Positions 51,790-61,225 of a stretch of DNA of 64,000 bases are shown here, piece after piece. Source of the DNA: Chthoniobacterales bacterium (GTDB lineage: Bacteria > Verrucomicrobiota > Verrucomicrobiia > Chthoniobacterales > Chthoniobacteraceae); assembly GCA_038207335.1 (NCBI GenBank), contig JBBQZX010000007.1, positions 138,651-202,650 on the forward strand, read 5' to 3'. The position numbers and the translations under genes were made by a program. How positions within the stretch are numbered: the first letter of the stretch is position 1; every line of letters starts with the position of its first letter. The notes under the pieces are model-generated. The model did not search any database, was not told where the DNA came from, and saw only the letters and a program-made list of their open reading frames with translations.

Positions 51790-52381
51790 AGCACTTCGGC
51801 TCTCACTAATTCGCGGGCGGCGACTGGCGGAGCGCCTCGCGGAATTGCGAGTAGAGCGCGTTGAGAAATTTGCGCAATTCCGCGCTGCGAGCCGCACACT
51901 CGACCTTCGGGCGCGCCTTGAGAATTTGCGCGCTGCTCGTCGCCTGGCTCTTGAGTTCCGCGCGCTGGGATTCTTCGCGAGCAAACTGCGGCCTGCTCAT
52001 CTAGTAGTTGCGCCGGGCTTCGAGCGCCTGACTGCTCACACCCGTTCGCGCATCCGCCTCCACCGTGCGCAAGCCGTAACGGACGAGCGTCTGGTTTCGC
52101 TCTTCAATCCTGACGAGCATCTCGAACTTCGCTTTTCAAAAGCAGCCCCCGGAGAGCACCGCGCTGTCGGTGCCGACATTGGAGGCGACAGCGCACGCCT
52201 CATTTCGAGGCTGACCGTGATCGGACGGCCCACGGCGTGGGTGCTGGACATTAACTCCAACGTCAACCCGGCTTGCGGAGCGACTATGACGGTTTGCCTC
52301 CACTGCGGCAGCCTGCCCTTAGCATTCGCCTAAATACGAATAGGCGAGGCGCGGAAAGTGCATGATTATTTCCCCGGCCCA

Positions 52382-54964
52382 ATGAACTGCTTGCGACTCC
52401 CCGCCTTGATCTGTTTCGCAGCGCTTATGTTTCCCGCCAGCCGCGCGCTGGCGCTCGACGCGAATGGCAACGGTCTCAACGACGTTTGGGAGCTCATCTT
52501 CAATGCGGGTGCGCTTTCCGCCAATGGCGATGCTGATGGCGACGGTGCGACCAATGCCGCGGAGAGTCTCGCCGGGACGAACCCTTTCGACGCGACTTCG
52601 CGACCGCTGCTGCGCGTAGCTCCGTGGTCGGCGGCGCAGTTGCAGCTCAGCTATGACAGCGTCGCGGGGAAGCGGTATCGGGTCGAGGCGAAGACCGATC
52701 TCACTCTGCCGCAGTGGACGCCGGAATTTGTGAAAGTCGCGCCGGGTTCCGAAAATGTGAGCCTGCTTTTTGCGGCGGCGGGCGGCGCAAAATTTTGGCG
52801 ACTGGCGATCGACGATGTGGACAGCGACGGCGACGGCCTGCTCGATGCGGAGGAGCGCTGGCTCGCTCTGGACCCGGCGACGCCGCGCACCGACCGCAGC
52901 GACTCGACCGATCTCGCCCGCGTGACCGCAGGGCTCAACGCTGCCAGCACCGTGACGCTCGGCGTGCTCGATCCACGCATGAGCGAGCGCTGGCCCGACC
53001 CGGCGATGCTCGTGGTGCGACGCAGCGGGGGACTGAAGCCGCTCACGGTGAATGTGACTTTCGCCGGCACGGCGACGCGCGGAATCGACTACGCCGCGAG
53101 CATTCCCGGAAGCGCGGTTTTCATCCCAGCCGGAGTGCGTGAGGTGCCGCTCCTGCTCGCACCGATCGCCGATACGGACGACGCCGAGCCTGCGGAAACC
53201 ATCATCGTTTCACTTCAAAATGGCGCGGGCTATACGCTCGGCGCGACGACTTCGGGAACCGTGACGTTGGAGAATGAAACGGCCACGAGCCCGCCGTCTG
53301 CCAAAGCGGCGGCGCGGTTTCTCATCCAGGCGGCGTTCGGGCCGGATCAAGATTCCGACGGGGACGGCATTCCGCAGAATATCGGTGATTTGATGACGAC
53401 GAGCTTCGCGGTGTGGATCGACGATCAGTTCACGCGTCCCGCCGGGCTCATTCAGCCGTGGGTCGATTGGGCTGCGGTGAATGCGCAGAGTGCCCAGCTC
53501 TACGGAAACTGGAAGGAGTTCGCATGGTGGAGCCGCGCGATGGGTGCTCCGAAGCTCCGTCCCGACGCCCCGACGACCGTCGAGCCCGATCCGCTCCGGC
53601 AGCGCGTCGCCTTTGCTCTCAGCGAGGTCATCGTCGTCTCCGACCGGCCCGAAGCCATCGCGGTGGAGCAGCGTGGGATGGCAAATTTCTACGACTTGTT
53701 CGAAACGCACGCGTTTGGGAACTACCGCGATCTTTTGCAAGCCGTCGCGCGGCATCCGGTGATGGGCATTTACCTCAGCCATCTCGGTAACCAAAAGGCG
53801 AACCCGGCGGCGAACGTCTTCCCCGACGAGAATTTCGCCCGTGAGATCATGCAGCTCTTCAGCATCGGCCTGTGGATGCTGAATCCCGACGGCACCCGCC
53901 AGCTCAACGCGCAGGGCCAGCCGATTCCGACTTACAACAACGGCGACATCACCGAACTCGCACGTGTTTTCACCGGCCTCTCGTTTGGCAACAACGTGAA
54001 CTTCGACCTGTATCCGCGCGACTTCACCGTGCCGATGAAGGGCTGGGACGCGTACCACGATCTCGGCGCGAAGACGCTGCTCGGCGGCCTCGCGCTGCCC
54101 GCGCGCACTGCGAGCCCCGGCAACACGGGCACCGCGACGATGGCCGACGTGACCGCCGCCGTGGACAATCTTTTCAATCACCAAAACGTCGGCCCGTTCC
54201 TCGCGCTGCGGCTCATCCAGCGGTTCGTCACGTCGAATCCCAGCCCGGCTTACATCGGGCGCGTCGCGGCTAAATTTTCGGACAACGGCAGCGGCGTGCG
54301 CGGCGACATGCAGGCAGTCGTGAAGGCCGTGCTGCTCGATCCCGAGGCGCGCGATCCGGCGATGATGTCGCAGCCGACGTGGGGAAAACTGCGCGAGCCA
54401 TTTCTGCGCTGCGTAAATTTCGCTCGGGCCTTCAACGCGTCGTCCACCTCCGGTCATTACGCGCTCGATCAATTCTCACTCGCACACGCGCAGGACCCGA
54501 TGAATGCGCCCAGCGTCTTCAACTTTTTCCTGCCCACGCACAGCCCCGCCGGGCCGGTCACTCAGATGGGCCTCGTCGCGCCGGAGTTCCAAATCGTCAA
54601 CGCCTCCACCGCGATTTCGGGTGCCAACTACTTTTGGAATCACACGTTGAGCGACCTGCATTTCTACGGCACCGGCACGCCAGCCTACGCCGTGCGGCTG
54701 AATCTCGACGCCGAACTCGCGCTCATCGTCCCCGCGGCGCAAATCGCGCAAAACGTGCCCGCCGGCCCCGCGCTCGATCCCGACCCGCTGCTGCGCCGCC
54801 TCGACCTCGCGCTCACCGGCGGCACGCTCACGCCGGCAAATTTCCAGATCATCCGCGAGGCCATGCTCCGCATCAACGCACCGACCTGGCAGTGGCACCG
54901 CGAACGCCTGCGCCTCGCCATCTATCTCATCACCACCTCCGCCGACTTCAACGTGCTCCGCTGA
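52382..54964 (+). CDS. DUF1800 family protein with Asp-rich repeats and a Calx-beta-like domain
   Basis: Signal peptide; DANGNG/DADGDG/DSDGDG; AARFLIQAAFG, LRQRVAFALSE, MGIYL, DENFAREIMQLFSIGL, KLREP, APSVFNFF. Confidence 0.9.
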   Translation: MNCLRLPALICFAALMFPASRALALDANGNGLNDVWELIFNAGALSANGDADGDGATNAAESLAGTNPFDATSRPLLRVAPWSAAQLQLSYDSVAGKRYRVEAKTDLTLPQWTPEFVKVAPGSENVSLLFAAAGGAKFWRLAIDDVDSDGDGLLDAEERWLALDPATPRTDRSDSTDLARVTAGLNAASTVTLGVLDPRMSERWPDPAMLVVRRSGGLKPLTVNVTFAGTATRGIDYAASIPGSAVFIPAGVREVPLLLAPIADTDDAEPAETIIVSLQNGAGYTLGATTSGTVTLENETATSPPSAKAAARFLIQAAFGPDQDSDGDGIPQNIGDLMTTSFAVWIDDQFTRPAGLIQPWVDWAAVNAQSAQLYGNWKEFAWWSRAMGAPKLRPDAPTTVEPDPLRQRVAFALSEVIVVSDRPEAIAVEQRGMANFYDLFETHAFGNYRDLLQAVARHPVMGIYLSHLGNQKANPAANVFPDENFAREIMQLFSIGLWMLNPDGTRQLNAQGQPIPTYNNGDITELARVFTGLSFGNNVNFDLYPRDFTVPMKGWDAYHDLGAKTLLGGLALPARTASPGNTGTATMADVTAAVDNLFNHQNVGPFLALRLIQRFVTSNPSPAYIGRVAAKFSDNGSGVRGDMQAVVKAVLLDPEARDPAMMSQPTWGKLREPFLRCVNFARAFNASSTSGHYALDQFSLAHAQDPMNAPSVFNFFLPTHSPAGPVTQMGLVAPEFQIVNASTAISGANYFWNHTLSDLHFYGTGTPAYAVRLNLDAELALIVPAAQIAQNVPAGPALDPDPLLRRLDLALTGGTLTPANFQIIREAMLRINAPTWQWHRERLRLAIYLITTSADFNVLR

Positions 54965-54965
54965 T

Positions 54966-56381
54966 ATGAATTCACCCCTCTCTCGCCGCCGCTTTCTCGG
55001 CCAGGCCAGTTGCGCCGCGGTCAGCTCCATCCCGATCCTCAGCACGCTGCTGAATCTCCGGCTCGCGCAGGATGTCGCCGCCGTCACCGTCCCCGCAACG
55101 AGCGAATATCGCGCGCTGGTGTGCCTCTTTCTCTCCGGCGGAAACGACTCGTTCAACATGCTCGTGCCGCGCGATCCCGCGGCCTACGCGACCTACCAGA
55201 CCAGCCGCTCGAACCTCGCGCTCACGCCGGCGCAACTCATCGACATCCATCCCATCGGGCTGCCCGACTACGCCGTGCATGGCGGGATGCCGGAGATCGC
55301 CGCTCTTTTTGAAAATGGAAAAGCCGCCTTCGTCGCGAACGTCGGCACGCTCATCGAGCCGGTGCAAAATCGCGCGCAGGTCGCGCAGAATCTCAAGCGG
55401 CTGCCGCTTGGCCTGTATTCGCACAGCGACCAGATCGAGCAGTGGCAGACCAGCGTGCCGCATGCGCGGAGTGGCATCGGATGGGGCGGGCGCATGGTTG
55501 ATCTCATCAAGGATCTCAACGCGAGCCAGATCGTACCGATGCAGATTTCGCTCGATGGCAGCAACGTCTGGCAGACCGGAAACACCGTCGCCGAATACGC
55601 GATCACGCCCGCCGGGGCGACCGCGCTCGCGGGCTACGGCGCGGATTGGGTGCAATATCAGGATGTGCAAAATGCAATGAGCGCCGCCGTGGACAGCCAG
55701 CTCACGCAGCAATACACGAACGTGCTCGCGCAGACCTTCAACACGCGGAAGAAGCAGGCGCTCGATGCGTATCAATCCTTCGCCGCCGCGAGCGCGCCGC
55801 CGCTGCCGGCGGGCGTCACTTTTCCAAACAGCTACGTCGGCTCGCGCCTCGCGATGATCGCCCGCGCGATCCAAGGCCGGGCCGCGCTCGGAGCCGTGCG
55901 GCAGACGTTCTTCGTGCAATGGGGCGGCTGGGATCATCACGACGACGTGCTGAATAATCAGGCCGCGATGCTCCCGCAGATCAGCGCGGCCATCGGCGCT
56001 TTTCAAGACGCGCTGACGGCGCTAGGCGTGGCGGACAAAGTCACGCTTTTCACCGCTTCCGACTTTGGCCGCACGCTCACCAGCAACAGCCGCGGGTCCG
56101 ATCACGCATGGGGCAGCAACCAGCTCGTCGTCGGCGGCGCGGTGCAGGGCAAGCGCATCTTCGGCCAGTATCCGTCGCTCGCGATCAATCCCGCCAGCGG
56201 CCCCGAGGTGAACCCGCTCGATACCGGCCGCGGGCGTTTCATCCCGACAACGAGCTGCGACGAGTTCTTCGCCGAACTAGCGCTCTGGCTCGGCGTGAGC
56301 CAGAGCGATCTCCCGCTCGTGCTGCCGAATATCGGCAACTTTCACACCGGCAGCGGTGCACCGATCGGCTTCATGGCATGA
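54966..56381 (+). CDS. DUF1501 family Tat-exported protein
   Basis: SRRRFLG; YRALVCLFLSGGNDSFN, LYSHSDQ, GGWDHH, SDFGRT, GSDHAWG, GRFIPT. Confidence 0.92.
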   Translation: MNSPLSRRRFLGQASCAAVSSIPILSTLLNLRLAQDVAAVTVPATSEYRALVCLFLSGGNDSFNMLVPRDPAAYATYQTSRSNLALTPAQLIDIHPIGLPDYAVHGGMPEIAALFENGKAAFVANVGTLIEPVQNRAQVAQNLKRLPLGLYSHSDQIEQWQTSVPHARSGIGWGGRMVDLIKDLNASQIVPMQISLDGSNVWQTGNTVAEYAITPAGATALAGYGADWVQYQDVQNAMSAAVDSQLTQQYTNVLAQTFNTRKKQALDAYQSFAAASAPPLPAGVTFPNSYVGSRLAMIARAIQGRAALGAVRQTFFVQWGGWDHHDDVLNNQAAMLPQISAAIGAFQDALTALGVADKVTLFTASDFGRTLTSNSRGSDHAWGSNQLVVGGAVQGKRIFGQYPSLAINPASGPEVNPLDTGRGRFIPTTSCDEFFAELALWLGVSQSDLPLVLPNIGNFHTGSGAPIGFMA

Positions 56382-56603: not shown

Positions 56604-57320
56604 CTACTTTTTTCCGAAGAGATTCCAGCCCGTTCCTTTGTCCTGCTTGTTTTGCTGGACTTTGAGCTGGCCGAGGAGGCTTTGCAGGCCGAGGTAAATT
56701 TTATGCCACTGGGCCTCGACGTTGTGGACGGCGTCGGGCATGTCGCTGAGGTATCGCAGCGAGGGAGCGTTGCCAAAGAGCGCGTTGACTTCTTCTTTCT
56801 TCGGCCCCTGCTTGTCGGCGCTCGCGAGGATGGCTTCGAGGCCTTGAGCAATGATGCTTTTGATCTCGAGAAACTGGTTCTCATCCTCTCGCGAAAATTT
56901 CTTGTCGCGCGCGAGATTGACGTAGCTGTTGAACTGCTTCCAGCACTCGATGTAGTTCTCCAGATGCAGTGTGAATTCCTCGAGGTTTTTGTAGTGCATG
57001 GCGGGTGAGGTGTAGGCGCGGGCGAGGTTGAGGGTCGCGGGATTCAGGAAAATGAGGGCGCCGCCGCGGAGTTCGCGCGCGGTGATGGTGAGGCCGCTGT
57101 AGTGGATGTAGAGGTCATTGAGCGGAAGATTAGTATCGGCGGCGCGCTGGAAGGCATCGATGACGACGCGGCCAATTTCGAGGACGACAGTGGTGGAAAA
57201 CGTGCTTGGCAACGTAGAGCCGACGATGCCGCCGCCGCGATGGACGGTGAAGCAGCCGGATGGAAGGCGTTCGGGCCAGAGCGGCTTTTGGGAGCGGGAG
57301 AAAGGTTTTAGCAGAGCCAT
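56604..57320 (-). CDS. Hypothetical two-part protein: roadblock-like N-terminal half plus helical C-terminal half
   Basis: GCFTVHRGGGIVGSTLP...helix...LYIHYSGLTITAREL.GGALIFL pattern; internal Met at 56999; overlaps the upstream regulator by 13 nt. Confidence 0.75.
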   Translation of the reverse strand: MALLKPFSRSQKPLWPERLPSGCFTVHRGGGIVGSTLPSTFSTTVVLEIGRVVIDAFQRAADTNLPLNDLYIHYSGLTITARELRGGALIFLNPATLNLARAYTSPAMHYKNLEEFTLHLENYIECWKQFNSYVNLARDKKFSREDENQFLEIKSIIAQGLEAILASADKQGPKKEEVNALFGNAPSLRYLSDMPDAVHNVEAQWHKIYLGLQSLLGQLKVQQNKQDKGTGWNLFGKK

Positions 57321-58357
57321 TTTGCCTCGATTTGTTTCATGGTCTCGCGGATGTGGGGGAGCACGGCGGAGCGAGTGAAGCCGACGCCGAGCGCTTCGTC
57401 GTCGCCGATGAGGACGGCGATGTGACGCTGCGCGCCGAGTCCCTCGACTTCCTGGAGCTGCCCGGCTTCGAGCTGGTCGCCGAGGCCGCGGAGCGCGCGA
57501 GACGTTTCATGGATCCACGCGGCCATCTCCTCGGGATTTTCCATGCCCCATTGGTCGAATTTCGCCTTGTCCGAACTCTCAACCGCAACCGCGAATTGCA
57601 CGCCTTTGTATCGCGCGAATGCGGCGAGCCCGCTGTCCTCCACCAGCGCGGGCGCGGCCGCGGCGGCTTCATCGAGCGACTGCGCAGTTTCCATAAGCAG
57701 ACTCTCGTACGAGCTGAAAATCGTGCGCGGGCGGGGCATGTCGGACGGGAGAATCTCGAAGTTGCCGGTCTTCCAACGAAGCATTTCGAGGAAGGCATCT
57801 CGACCGGAATGCTCGCCAGTCGCGGCGTCGATGATCTCGCCGCGCTGCACCCAGATGCGGCCCTCGCCAGTCGCGGTCGTCACCTTCAAAATGGCAGAAC
57901 TCTGCGTGAGACACTCGAGCTGCACGATATCGACGAGCGTTTTGCTCTGCACTCCGCGGAAGCCGCCCGCCTCCTCACGCTCGAGTAGCGACTCGATGCA
58001 ATCGACGAAATTGATGATTTCTTTGCCGGTCTTCGGCTTCTCCATGTAGAGGTCGATGCCCATCGCGTAGGCACGCGCGCGGAACTGCTCATCCTCCGCC
58101 GCGGTCATCACGACGACACGCAGCGCGGGGAATTTTCGCCGCACGATCGCGAGGACTTGGAAGCCGTCCATCTGCGGCATTCGGAGATCGACGAGGAGAA
58201 GATTGAACGCCTCGCTCTCGAGAAGCGCTATGGCTCGTGGACCATTATCCGCCGTGTGGATCTCGGGTTGGCTCGGGAGCCGGGCGAGGATTTCCTGGTA
58301 AATTTCGAGGATGTCGTGCTCGTCGTCGAGGATGAGAATTTTTTGCCGGGAGGCCAT
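57308..58357 (-). CDS. Response regulator REC plus DUF4388 (PATAN-like) plus C-terminal roadblock-like domain
   Basis: ILILDD, LVDLRMP, EKP; GFRGV...LVDIVQL...GRIWVQRGEIIDA...GRDAFLEMLRWKTGNF...LLME...DE. Confidence 0.85.
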   Translation of the reverse strand: MASRQKILILDDEHDILEIYQEILARLPSQPEIHTADNGPRAIALLESEAFNLLLVDLRMPQMDGFQVLAIVRRKFPALRVVVMTAAEDEQFRARAYAMGIDLYMEKPKTGKEIINFVDCIESLLEREEAGGFRGVQSKTLVDIVQLECLTQSSAILKVTTATGEGRIWVQRGEIIDAATGEHSGRDAFLEMLRWKTGNFEILPSDMPRPRTIFSSYESLLMETAQSLDEAAAAAPALVEDSGLAAFARYKGVQFAVAVESSDKAKFDQWGMENPEEMAAWIHETSRALRGLGDQLEAGQLQEVEGLGAQRHIAVLIGDDEALGVGFTRSAVLPHIRETMKQIEAKWLC

Positions 58358-58408
58358 GAGACGTGAGGGAAGGGATGCGCGATTGGAACAGGTTGCGCGG
58401 CGAATGAA

Positions 58409-58424
58409 AGCACGAGGCAGGCCA
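58409..58424 (-). promoter_or_regulatory. Sigma54-like -24/-12 element for the leftward operon
   Basis: Minus strand TGGCCTGCCTCGTGCT, i.e. GG-N10-GC. Confidence 0.55.
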
Positions 58425-58466
58425 TTTCAAAATCATCGATGAGAAAAACATGCGCTGCTGTGCAAT

Positions 58467-58482
58467 TGGCACTTCGCGTGCT
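58467..58482 (+). promoter_or_regulatory. Sigma54-like -24/-12 element for the rightward operon
   Basis: TGGCACTTCGCGTGCT, i.e. TGGCAC with GG-N10-GC, 30 nt before ATG 58513. Confidence 0.62.
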
Positions 58483-58512
58483 TAGGGTGAGCGTCGCCAA
58501 CCCCACGCTTGC

Positions 58513-60111
58513 ATGATCAAGTTCCTCAAAAACCTTTTTCAGAAACCTCCGGCTCCCGTGAAATCGGTGACCCGTGTCCTCCACGATGGGCCATCGGTCC
58601 CGGTCGTAAAAGTGGAAACCGCATCGCTCTCGCTTGCGGCTATTATCGCGCGCTTCCCGGCAGACTTGAAATCAACGATAGCCGCCGCGCCGGATCCGAA
58701 TGTGATGGTGGCACTGCCGCTTTCCACGATCCTGAAACAGCTACCCGGCGGCTCCGTGAAAATGTCGTTGGCGAGCATTTACCGGCAAGCACCTGCGGGA
58801 ACATTTTCTTCCCGCGTGGAGGAAAAGCGGATGGTCGAGATTCCGCTCGGTGAGATTTTCAAACGCGTAAAACCGGAACTACTGAAGCGCCGCGACGACC
58901 AGCGGATGCACGAGCTCGCGGAGGAAGAGGGCTTCGACGTTTTCGGCGATCCCGAAAATCCATACGCGGTCGCGCCGACCGTTCCGAAGGCGCCGGAGCC
59001 CGCGCCCACGCCCGCGCCGATCGCACCGCCGCCGTCGCTGCGACTCGCCTCGGCAAAAGCGCCGATCGCTGTGGAGGAAGAAGAACTGCGAATCGAAACG
59101 CTTCCGGTCGCTCCAGCTAAGCCGCTCAAGGTAGAACCGCCTCGTGAGACAAAGCCAATCGCCGCTGCTTTAAAAAGTGACGCGGGTCCAGTCGTGCTGC
59201 CGTTGCCGGACATCTCGACAGGCTGGCCAGCGGATATTCTCGCGGAAATCGGATCGCTGACGGGCTCGACGGTGACGCTTCCTGCGGCCGGGGTCACGGC
59301 CGGACTCGCGAAGGGCAAAGTGGCATTCACATGGGGTGAAATTCGGAGCTGGATCACGCCCACGCTCACCGAGCCTTCCGCGGCCCGCGACGCGATCGAG
59401 CTGCAGATCCCGCTGCGAATCGTCGCTCCGGCATTTCTGAAATCTTCGAAGGATGGAGGCAGCCGTAAGCGCCTGACGGTGGACGACTCGATCCCAACAC
59501 TTTTTGCCGGTGGGCCGCCGAAACCTGAGCCCGTACAGAAAGCCGTGACGCCTCCCGAGCCCGAGCCTGAAGCTGCCGCCGAGCCCGAAACCCAGCCAAT
59601 CCCATCCCCGGTCATTCCCGAATCGATCGCTCCTCCTCAGCCTGACGATGCCGAGCCCGCTAGCGAGCCCGAGCACGTCTTGGCCGCGCCCGCCCACGAG
59701 CACGAGCCCGCGCATATCTCCGGAAATGTCGGAAATATTTTCGGCCAGCCGGACAAAACCGACTGGACCCCGGCGGACATCGTGAAGGCCGTGGTCAAGC
59801 TGCCGCAAGTCGCGGGAGCCGTCGTCGCATTGCAGGAGGGTCTCGTCGTCGCGCACTCGCTTCCTGAAAACATGAAAGGCGATGTCGTCGCGGCGTTTCT
59901 CCCGCAGATATTCGGGCGGTTGAATCAATACTCCGGTGAGATGAAGCTCGGCGAGATCGACGATGTCCTCATGTGCACTCACGGCGCTTACTTTCAGATC
60001 TTCCGGCTCGGATACGTCTTCTTTGCAGTACTCGGAAAGCCCGGGGAATCGCTTCCCTGGCAGGAACTCCGAGTTCTCGCCGAAGAACTCACCCGCCAAA
60101 CTCAAAAGTAA
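58513..60111 (+). CDS. Pro/Glu-rich protein with a duplicated unrecognised domain and a C-terminal roadblock/LC7 domain
   Basis: C-terminal LPQVAGAVVALQEGLVVAHSLP...VAAFLPQIF...MKLGEI; two ~80-aa internal repeats; PEP-rich linkers. Confidence 0.85.
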   Translation: MIKFLKNLFQKPPAPVKSVTRVLHDGPSVPVVKVETASLSLAAIIARFPADLKSTIAAAPDPNVMVALPLSTILKQLPGGSVKMSLASIYRQAPAGTFSSRVEEKRMVEIPLGEIFKRVKPELLKRRDDQRMHELAEEEGFDVFGDPENPYAVAPTVPKAPEPAPTPAPIAPPPSLRLASAKAPIAVEEEELRIETLPVAPAKPLKVEPPRETKPIAAALKSDAGPVVLPLPDISTGWPADILAEIGSLTGSTVTLPAAGVTAGLAKGKVAFTWGEIRSWITPTLTEPSAARDAIELQIPLRIVAPAFLKSSKDGGSRKRLTVDDSIPTLFAGGPPKPEPVQKAVTPPEPEPEAAAEPETQPIPSPVIPESIAPPQPDDAEPASEPEHVLAAPAHEHEPAHISGNVGNIFGQPDKTDWTPADIVKAVVKLPQVAGAVVALQEGLVVAHSLPENMKGDVVAAFLPQIFGRLNQYSGEMKLGEIDDVLMCTHGAYFQIFRLGYVFFAVLGKPGESLPWQELRVLAEELTRQTQK

Positions 60112-60117
60112 CTTTTC

Positions 60118-60732
60118 ATGGCTATCATCAACCAGGCAACCAAGGAGCTGCAGGTAAAGATCGTTTACTACGGCCCGGCCAAGAGCGGAAAGACGACCAA
60201 TCTCGAGCAAGTCCACAGCAACGTGCAGGTACCGAATCCCGAGGCAAAAGGAAAGATGACTTCCCTCGCGACCAGCAGCGATCGGACATTGTTTTTCGAC
60301 TTCTTTCCGCTCGAAGCGGTCGCGATCAAAGGCTTCAAGACCAAGTTCGCACTCTTCACCGTACCCGGCCAGGTCATCTACAATGCGACGCGCCAAATTG
60401 TGCTCCGCGGCGTGGATGGCATCGTCTTTGTCGCTGACTCTCAGTATGACAAGATGGAGGAGAACATCGAAACCTTCCGGCACCTGGAAGAGAATCTCAA
60501 GACGCTCAACCTGAGCCTCGATGACATTCCCTACGTAATGCAATACAACAAGCGCGACCTGCCGGACGTCGCGCCGGTGGAGTACCTCGACTTCCTCTTG
60601 AACAACCGCGAAGTTCAAGTGCCATCCTTCGAAGCCTCCGCTTCAAAGTGCGAGGGGGTCTTCGATACTTTGAACATGATCACCAGGATGCTTCTTCACA
60701 AGTTTCTCAACGAAGGCGGACGCCGTCGCTAA
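60118..60732 (+). CDS. mglA: MglA-type small GTPase
   Basis: KIVYYGPAKSGKTTNL, DRTLFFDF, FTVPGQV.Y, LRGVDGIVFVADSQ, QYNKRDL, ASA. Confidence 0.95.
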   Translation: MAIINQATKELQVKIVYYGPAKSGKTTNLEQVHSNVQVPNPEAKGKMTSLATSSDRTLFFDFFPLEAVAIKGFKTKFALFTVPGQVIYNATRQIVLRGVDGIVFVADSQYDKMEENIETFRHLEENLKTLNLSLDDIPYVMQYNKRDLPDVAPVEYLDFLLNNREVQVPSFEASASKCEGVFDTLNMITRMLLHKFLNEGGRRR

Positions 60733-60745
60733 CCCACCTAGACCT

Positions 60746-61225
60746 ATGAGTCAGTTCCCTTCGCTCAACCAGGAAGACATCGATCACATCGACGCAGCGT
60801 TGCGAGAATTGCTTCGCAAAAGCGAGGCTAACATCGCCTTGCTCGTCGAGAAGGCGGGTTACCTGATTCACCAGTGCGGAAACCCCGAGCAGATCGATAC
60901 AACGACCTTCGCAACTCTCGGTTCGAATGCCTACAACGCCGTCCAGTTCATGGCGAGCCTGGTTAATGAGAGCAACTTCACAAGCATGTATCAGCAAGGG
61001 GAGAACTACAGCACCCTCATGCTCAACATTGATGAGAACTCGCTTCTGGTGATCGTATTTCCAACTCACCTAACAGTCGGCTCGATGAAGTATTTTGCGG
61101 GTCCCACGGTGAAGTTGATCGCTGACCGCATCCAGGTCAGTTCCGATCGCGGCGACACAGGACTGGACCTTAGCGACCTGAATCCCGACGACGTGCAGGC
61201 GCTCTTCCAACAAAAGAAGAAGTAG
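60746..61225 (+). CDS. mglB: MglB-type roadblock protein
   Basis: ALLVEKAGYLI, FATLGS, MASLVNESNF..MYQQGE; C-terminal DLNPDDVQALF; 13 nt after mglA. Confidence 0.88.
   Translation: MSQFPSLNQEDIDHIDAALRELLRKSEANIALLVEKAGYLIHQCGNPEQIDTTTFATLGSNAYNAVQFMASLVNESNFTSMYQQGENYSTLMLNIDENSLLVIVFPTHLTVGSMKYFAGPTVKLIADRIQVSSDRGDTGLDLSDLNPDDVQALFQQKKK

Follow-up and report, generated by a model that had tools for sequence, protein, structure and literature searches.

Ras-like GTPase switches of the Group 1 MglA/MglB type are well understood mainly in the myxobacteria. In Myxococcus xanthus, the module includes RomR, RomX, RomY and MglC, and SgmX leads to PilB. RomR and MglC have a scaffold role in polarity (PMC10329633), and RomX is a helical bundle that lies between a REC domain and GTP-bound MglA, with L75, R76 and W87 as key residues (bioRxiv 2024.02.20.581209). 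Group 1 MglA proteins have been defined by an intrinsic Arg beside the G2 Thr, a TVPGQ G3 motif and an NKxD G4 motif; PATAN genes were reported as neighbours of Group 1 and Group 5 genes, and two MglB paralogues occur in some of the Group 1 systems (Wuichet and Sogaard-Andersen, PMC4316618). In Synechocystis, binding of PATAN domains to PilB1 and PilC is known (bioRxiv 2021.06.11.447907), an uncharacterised MglA-roadblock pair is present in Methylacidiphilum (PMC4476040), and an analogy between MglB and Ragulator has been drawn (PMC13408092). Here, we describe a cluster of five genes around mglA and mglB at positions 56604..61225 of a 64,000-nucleotide stretch of a Chthoniobacterales bacterium (contig JBBQZX010000007.1, positions 138,651 to 202,650), which is called the window below. 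The cluster is a conserved MglA/MglB Ras-like GTPase switch of soil and freshwater Chthoniobacteraceae.

The core is shared with M. xanthus and Thermus thermophilus, i.e., an MglA of the Group 1 type, which has the Arg finger and the TVPGQ motif, and an MglB with a C-terminal helix. Extra roadblock proteins and a receiver-domain regulator recall the Myxococcus module, and a TPR protein together with PilB, the likely output in relatives of the cluster, recalls SgmX and PilB. In contrast to Myxococcus, the gene order is mglA-mglB, and all parts lie in one cluster. Each of the extra roadblocks is part of a larger protein, in which it is joined to a scaffold, to REC-PATAN or to a helical bundle. 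An unnamed repeat makes up the scaffold together with a predicted amphipathic anchor, and MglA and MglB carry Ala21 and N64/F68, respectively. No RomR homologue is encoded in the cluster, where the outputs of the receiver protein are PATAN and roadblock domains; RomR and RomX were not searched for elsewhere in the genome. The proximity of MglA to PATAN genes and more than one roadblock per GTPase agree with the neighbourhoods described in PMC4316618, whereas the accessible part of that survey lists Verrucomicrobia under Group 5 only and contains no repeat-domain hub, roadblock-bundle fusion or four-roadblock cluster. The combination of REC and PATAN in one protein resembles the cyanobacterial PatA-type (PATAN-REC) regulators, for which the output is PilB and PilC, but here the order is REC-PATAN, a roadblock is added, and the protein is linked to MglA instead of a Che-like system. 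The grouping of several divergent roadblock domains about one small GTPase, together with a predicted membrane tether, also recalls the Ragulator and Asgard platforms. However, that likeness is at the level of the fold only (10–17% identity), the GTPase is MglA instead of Rag, and the pairing is presumed.

The cluster is real, highly conserved, apparently unstudied and built on a known switch. Likely to be new to specialists are the unnamed repeat domain, the hub with its predicted membrane tether and what appears to be the decay of a pilB-operon switch in the family, while additional roadblocks and PATAN genes next to MglA have been published before (PMC4316618). An earlier reading of the window from its letters alone (the sequence-only reading) had allowed for the exact arrangement being already characterised. 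No published description of the cluster, the hub or the repeat was found in literature searches, for which most subscription journals were outside reach, and the accessible parts of PMC9481161, PMC11580455 and PMC11135422 contain nothing on the cluster.

Gene arrangement and conservation of the cluster

The five open reading frames (ORFs) form two divergent, tightly coupled groups, exactly as the sequence-only reading had it. P1 (56604..57320, 238 aa) and P2 (57308..58357, 349 aa) are encoded on the minus strand and overlap by 13 nt. On the plus strand follow P3, the hub or scaffold (58513..60111, 532 aa), mglA (60118..60732, 204 aa), which encodes a small GTPase, and an mglB-like gene (60746..61225) for a roadblock protein with a C-terminal helix; the gaps are 6 nt between P3 and mglA and 13 nt between mglA and mglB. 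The divergent groups are separated by 155 nt (58358..58512), presumably a shared promoter region, in which no sigma-70-like site was found and a promoter and terminator scan returned nothing above shuffled sequences.

When GTDB was scanned with the alignment of P1, 458 stretches were confirmed, and the locus counts cover the 80 loci returned. The complete five-gene set was present in 62 of these loci, and in 52 of the 54 loci with at least 5.5 kb of upstream DNA. Therefore, the arrangement is not due to chance, and the co-conservation that the earlier reading had proposed to check by synteny was confirmed. An identical arrangement was found in the cultured Chthoniobacter flavus Ellin428 (L144), a species described as non-motile. 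The titles of the relatives are Chthoniobacteraceae or Chthoniobacter, in line with the verrucomicrobial host that had been suspected. Among 37 genomes of the Chthoniobacteraceae, which are kin and not independent and of which several are incomplete, an intact-type MglA, P1 and full-length P2 co-occurred in the identical 26 genomes; three had only a degenerate MglA and eight had no MglA.

MglA and MglB

MglA matched its counterparts from T. thermophilus (E 5e-61) and M. xanthus (E about 1e-60). The catalytic motifs R56-T57, T81-V-P-G-Q85 and N144-K-x-D147 were invariant in 43/43 aligned rows, which had been chosen as intact. The length of 204 aa lies within the Group 1 range (150–240 aa, single domain), and mglB is adjacent at a distance of 13 nt, the Group 1 definition being within four genes. 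Judged by these motifs, MglA is a Group 1-type small GTPase with an Arg finger. MglB aligned over its full length with M. xanthus MglB (E 2.6e-13), including the C-terminal helix. Its Robl_LC7 domain scored above the Pfam cut-off, and the NCBIfam MglB model gave an E value of 7.6e-14, below the equivalog cut-off.

Genomes, loci and contigs are designated by our own G, L and C numbers, G000 being the genome of the window. The mglB profile had no match in G042, G056, G179, G016 and G029 in a run without positive control; in another run, the same profile matched in 3 of 17 cases, namely the three known positives. In L058, L060 and L079, a hub and a catalytically intact mglA were present, and no mglB was detected in the genome.

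The hub P3 and its unnamed repeat domain

The sequence-only reading had described P3 as a Pro-rich roadblock protein. The roadblock domain was verified by Pfam (59746..60102, plus strand, PF03259 with 26.6 bits at a cut-off of 23), but the remainder of the architecture had been overlooked. From the N-terminus, the hub consists of a cationic amphipathic helix, a first repeat, a Pro-rich linker, a second repeat, a Pro/acid-rich linker and the roadblock domain. The helix comprises the first 11 residues (58513..58545, plus strand), is a predicted membrane-targeting sequence and has a hydrophobic moment of 0.72. Values of at least 0.6 were found for 87 of 118 hub ORFs, a set that contains duplicates and kin, compared with 2.3% of 3,754 control ORFs treated alike. 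We take this helix to be similar to the membrane-targeting helices of MinD and MreB.

The two repeat copies were found at 58606..58953 (residues 32-147, hidden Markov model (HMM) E 5e-36) and at 59176..59514 (residues 222-334, HMM E 1e-27), both on the plus strand. The domain has about 110 residues, and a confident AlphaFold2 model based on a 75-row alignment (pLDDT, the predicted local distance difference test score, 86; pTM, the predicted template modelling score, 0.71) shows four strand-helix units and a tail of loose prediction. No match was found in Pfam, PDB sequences or PDB folds, copy 1 had no Pfam match, and the 75 repeat members had only chance-level Pfam matches; the domain is thus unnamed, but not proven new. 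With the repeat profile, no fewer than 2,209 clusters (50% identity) were retrieved. A hub-type roadblock terminates 134 of the 150 top repeat proteins, and their repeat copy number varies from 2 to 7. Among 201 genomes sampled from the phylum, the repeat was present in 12/12 MglA-positive versus 3/189 MglA-negative genomes. The distant repeat protein P0131 has three N-terminal transmembrane segments and no amphipathic end, and the free-standing bundle protein of G064 described below has one transmembrane helix; as far as the sequences indicate, transmembrane helices can replace the missing amphipathic end. A complex prediction with two hub roadblocks, MglA, GTP and Mg scored 0.01 against a mark of 0.32, which counts neither way.

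Two further proteins of the window genome (G000) with 1,562 aa (C14:41416-46104, plus strand) and 701 aa (C10:20222-22327, minus strand) also have an N-terminal amphipathic helix, followed by one repeat and a long charged helical tail. By a crude heptad score, 45% and 14% of them, respectively, are coiled coil, and relatives reach 2,200–2,700 aa (L096, L106, L107). These long proteins are candidates for cytoskeletal or polar landmark proteins. In L108:1628-3370 and L109:3913-5748, hubs with a barely recognisable repeat and an intact roadblock were found, and MglA, MglB and a pilB orthologue were not detected in the respective genomes.

The leftward proteins P1 and P2

The leftmost gene had been read as encoding a roadblock-like or helical protein. 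The roadblock part of that description holds, while it had been missed that P1 is a fusion. In the predicted model (pLDDT 74), a minimal roadblock domain (57030..57272, minus strand, about residues 17-97), in which the first helix is absent, is joined to a four-helix bundle (56637..56993, minus strand, about residues 110-228). The N-terminus matched an Asgard roadblock with a Foldseek probability of 1.00 (E 3e-4) and had no Pfam match; the best matches of the roadblock core were Asgard roadblocks and Ragulator subunits. The highly conserved bundle belongs to no named family and gave generic fold matches only. P1 ends with a tail of the W-x-L-F-G-K-K type, and H206, L219, K220 and W232 are invariant. 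The two halves are split into two genes in G017, G023 and G027 and in 3 of the 80 loci. In G064, the P1-type bundle is free-standing, with one transmembrane helix as a tail; used as a query, this protein retrieved only four close relatives. The bundle could be a RomX-like adaptor, by resemblance of L219, K220 and W232; on account of H206, an HPt role was also considered for it. RomX (PDB 8ZNA according to bioRxiv 2024.02.20.581209) was absent among the 50 matches listed for P1 and among its sequence matches, which does not amount to an exclusion.

For P2, the predicted succession of receiver, DUF4388 and roadblock domains was substantiated. The REC and DUF4388/PATAN domains (PF00072 and PF14332) scored above the Pfam cut-offs. 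The C-terminal 107 residues had no Pfam match, but matched the roadblock profile of the scaffold (hhalign 91%, E 1e-6), and their only PDB sequence match at E ≤ 10 was a weak one to a Robl_LC7 protein (E 0.68). No match was obtained with the MglB profile (0.3%). Comparison of the P1 and P2 profiles revealed no similarity, and P1 reached only 51.5% against the hub roadblock profile. Taken together, both leftward proteins have a roadblock fold, P1 by Foldseek and the C-terminus of P2 by profile, and with MglB and the hub, for which Pfam detected the domain, the count of four roadblock domains was correct. In the receiver domain, D11, D12, D57, T85 and K107 were invariant in 15/15 aligned rows. 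The phosphorylation site is thus intact by sequence, as expected for the phosphorylation control that had been suggested. No kinase for P2 was identified, kinases not having been searched for.

A DUF4388 protein with a roadblock-like-looking tail, followed by a free-standing weak roadblock gene (PF03259, E 0.09), is encoded elsewhere in the window genome (G000 C17:90282-91438, minus strand; L081:6283-7439), and this pair mirrors the P2-P1 arrangement. SopA is not a further REC-DUF4388 protein, as the published account gives it no characterised domains. Upstream of the cluster (52358-56381, plus strand), the window encodes two proteins, one of 868 aa that looks secreted and one of 471 aa whose leader is twin-arginine-like; the two are reminiscent of the DUF1800/DUF1501 pair.

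Link to type IV pili and history of the module

In the other families of the Chthoniobacterales, MglA was present in 11 of 24 genomes. In the fetched loci of eight of these 11, genes for a TPR-MshEN protein, PilB, hub, MglA and MglB lie on one strand, and in a ninth genome, pilB and the repeat are together on another contig. The other two (G042, G056) have a hub and mglA, and neither a pilB orthologue nor mglB was detected. A pilB orthologue was found in 9/11 MglA-positive versus 0/13 MglA-negative genomes of the order outside the family, again counting kin that are not independent. That the scaffold gene and mglA follow TPR-MshEN and pilB within a single run of genes points to type IV pili. 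Members of other groups fit in part: G064, which belongs to another class, has REC-PATAN, PATAN, TPR-MshEN, pilB, hub, mglA and mglB in one run, and in G120 mglA, mglB and pilB adjoin, while no pilB was adjacent in the fetched DNA of the remaining 7 of 9 phylum-level genomes.

The window genome has its pilB orthologue on contig C25, where it overlaps a gene for a protein with TPR and MshEN domains (C25:27297-30031, minus strand; L080:5298-8032). In other families, this gene pair stands at the head of the run of hub, mglA and mglB, and the TPR-MshEN protein is a possible SgmX-like pilus activator linked to cyclic di-GMP. The genome also encodes eight PilT-family proteins over the cut-off, PilC, a prepilin, PilM and secretins, and no flagellin match was found. 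The eight PilT/PilU-family genes and several PilB/GspE paralogues are distributed over contigs C3, C5, C6, C23 and C34, an unusually high number of pilus ATPases. In three loci (L064:5492-7201, L100:7261-8861 and L102:3874-5875), pilB is broken into several frames by an assembly error or as a pseudogene and was therefore missed by whole-length searches.

Within the family, many members have a separate hub paralogue behind TPR-MshEN/pilB. In seven genomes with such a second hub (G035, G020, G028, G015, G019, G032, G014), no mglA was detected in the fetched DNA; in G033, only repeats were found behind pilB, and again the fetched DNA revealed no mglA. In three others (G016, G022, G029), the accompanying mglA lacks the catalytic motifs. 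The window genome has no second hub according to the repeat profile search. The mglA genes behind pilB and hub at L061:7040-7678, L064:7992-8717 and L066:6969-7541 have neither an Arg finger nor TVPGQ, and no mglB is nearby; from their sequences, they are apparently decay stages or pseudo-GTPases. In an IQ-TREE phylogeny of 48 hub roadblocks (122 columns, 10 close relatives left out), the five-gene hubs (100/98) were separated from the pilB-linked hubs of all families (97/82). In the Chthoniobacteraceae, the five-gene module has likely taken the place of the switch in the TPR-MshEN/pilB/hub/mglA/mglB operon, as far as such a history can be read from sequences.

Proposed mechanism and alternatives

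We hypothesize, and consider it somewhat probable, that an MglA/MglB switch with its own scaffold and regulator sets the place, i.e., the pole, or the timing of type IV pilus assembly. MglA would cycle between GTP and GDP by means of its intrinsic Arg finger, with MglB acting as the GTPase-activating protein (GAP). Via its amphipathic helix, the hub would be tethered to the inner membrane, its repeats would gather partners, either the PilB/TPR-MshEN motor unit or the repeat-bearing coiled-coil proteins of the genome, and its roadblock would hold MglB or MglA; in this way, it would act in place of RomR and MglC, which together have this role in Myxococcus. P2 would be phosphorylated by a kinase encoded elsewhere, pair with the P1 roadblock and feed the signal in, and its PATAN domain may contact PilB in a cyanobacteria-like manner. 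The five-gene module would have taken over from the pilB-operon switch, the mglA of which is degenerate or missing in the family. A polarity or spatial-organisation system had been proposed by the sequence-only reading; a polarity-type function is plausible, whereas the roadblock heterodimers of that proposal are still conjecture.

Several observations weigh against this reading. Gene presence, domains and co-inheritance were observed, whereas it is only from these that we infer which domains bind which, and no experiment on any member of the cluster was found in print. The order of mglA before mglB, which had been highlighted as a reversal, is not special, because the same order was found at every locus of the phylum that was fetched with both genes. 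The position of M. xanthus MglA Gly21 is occupied by Ala in 35 of the 43 rows, including the window MglA, and MglB has N64/F68 in place of A64/G68. In the proteins studied, G21V abolishes GAP-stimulated hydrolysis, and A64/G68 of M. xanthus MglB are critical for GAP activity (PMC3199381). Because of these residues, the GAP behaviour of MglB on MglA may differ from M. xanthus. The five-gene loci lie away from pilus genes, and the separate hub paralogue behind pilB in many family members, absent from the window genome, could have freed the module for another job. A pilB orthologue was present in 6 of the 11 family genomes that lack an intact MglA, and thus pili do not need the switch. The PilB encoded on C25 scored 654 and hence just below the TIGR02538 cut-off of 676, close to its GspE score, so that it may have a role in secretion. 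Lastly, the replacement history is weakened by the 122 columns of the tree and by the approximately unbiased (AU) test, which did not reject a single within-family hub clade (p-AU 0.215).

The five-gene module might also be a polarity system uncoupled from pili, which marks a pole for the division site, for budding, for polar secretion or for positioning the giant coiled-coil proteins, with the pilB-linked hub paralogue serving the pili. The five-gene loci do not adjoin pilus genes (a PilB-like match was found in 1 of 80, a 133-aa fragment), the hub tree splits the two types, and the repeat also heads coiled-coil-rich proteins of 700–2,700 aa in the family. Nevertheless, we regard this as unlikely: the window genome has the five-gene hub only, yet keeps a pilB orthologue, PATAN and MglA are linked to pilus motors wherever they have been studied, and the module is not needed for division because 11 of the 37 family genomes lack it in intact form. 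The module could also be an on/off gate that involves no pole-to-pole relocation, with P2 phosphorylation switching a pilus or a type II-like secretion system for attachment to polysaccharide particles or DNA uptake. No report of motility was found for hosts of the module. For a family member, type 4 pili that serve in attachment to insoluble substrate or in twitching have been predicted, and no flagella (PMC11596606). A change in hydrolysis may follow from Ala21 and from the altered helix of MglB, and the closeness of PilB to GspE would also suit a gate. However, a scaffold that is targeted to the membrane and has long disordered linkers resembles RomR in spatial feedback (PMC10329633), and eight PilT-family genes suggest retractile, dynamic pili, which makes a mere gate quite improbable in our view.

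That P1 and P2 are an unrelated regulator pair that only shares a promoter region with hub-mglA-mglB is very hard to reconcile with their identical presence and absence, together with intact MglA, in the 37 family genomes. Furthermore, they carry two roadblock domains related to that of the hub, and PATAN genes flank mglA or hub in G064, G120, G214 and G108. For such independence speak the other families, which have the hub-mglA-mglB run and in which P1 and full-length P2 were not detected, and 2 of the 54 well-flanked loci, in which P1/P2 are apart from the core.

Significance

The cluster is a compact candidate for the anchoring of a Group 1 MglA/MglB switch and its signalling with other partners, and it can be tested because it is encoded in the cultured C. 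flavus Ellin428. With the repeat, an unnamed domain family is defined whose occurrence follows that of MglA in the phylum sample. From the cluster, a major soil lineage is predicted to have type IV pili that are regulated and perhaps polar, a behaviour that was not found described in the literature searches. A bolder proposal, which we consider rather doubtful, is that the repeat is a new-fold polarity-scaffold domain, that membrane-tethered hubs and giant coiled-coil proteins build a polar landmark, and that the four roadblock domains stack as a Ragulator-like platform for MglA. If true, such a repeat-built landmark would mean RomR-independent, phosphorylation-controlled front-rear polarity and a hidden pilus-driven surface motility in abundant soil Verrucomicrobia.

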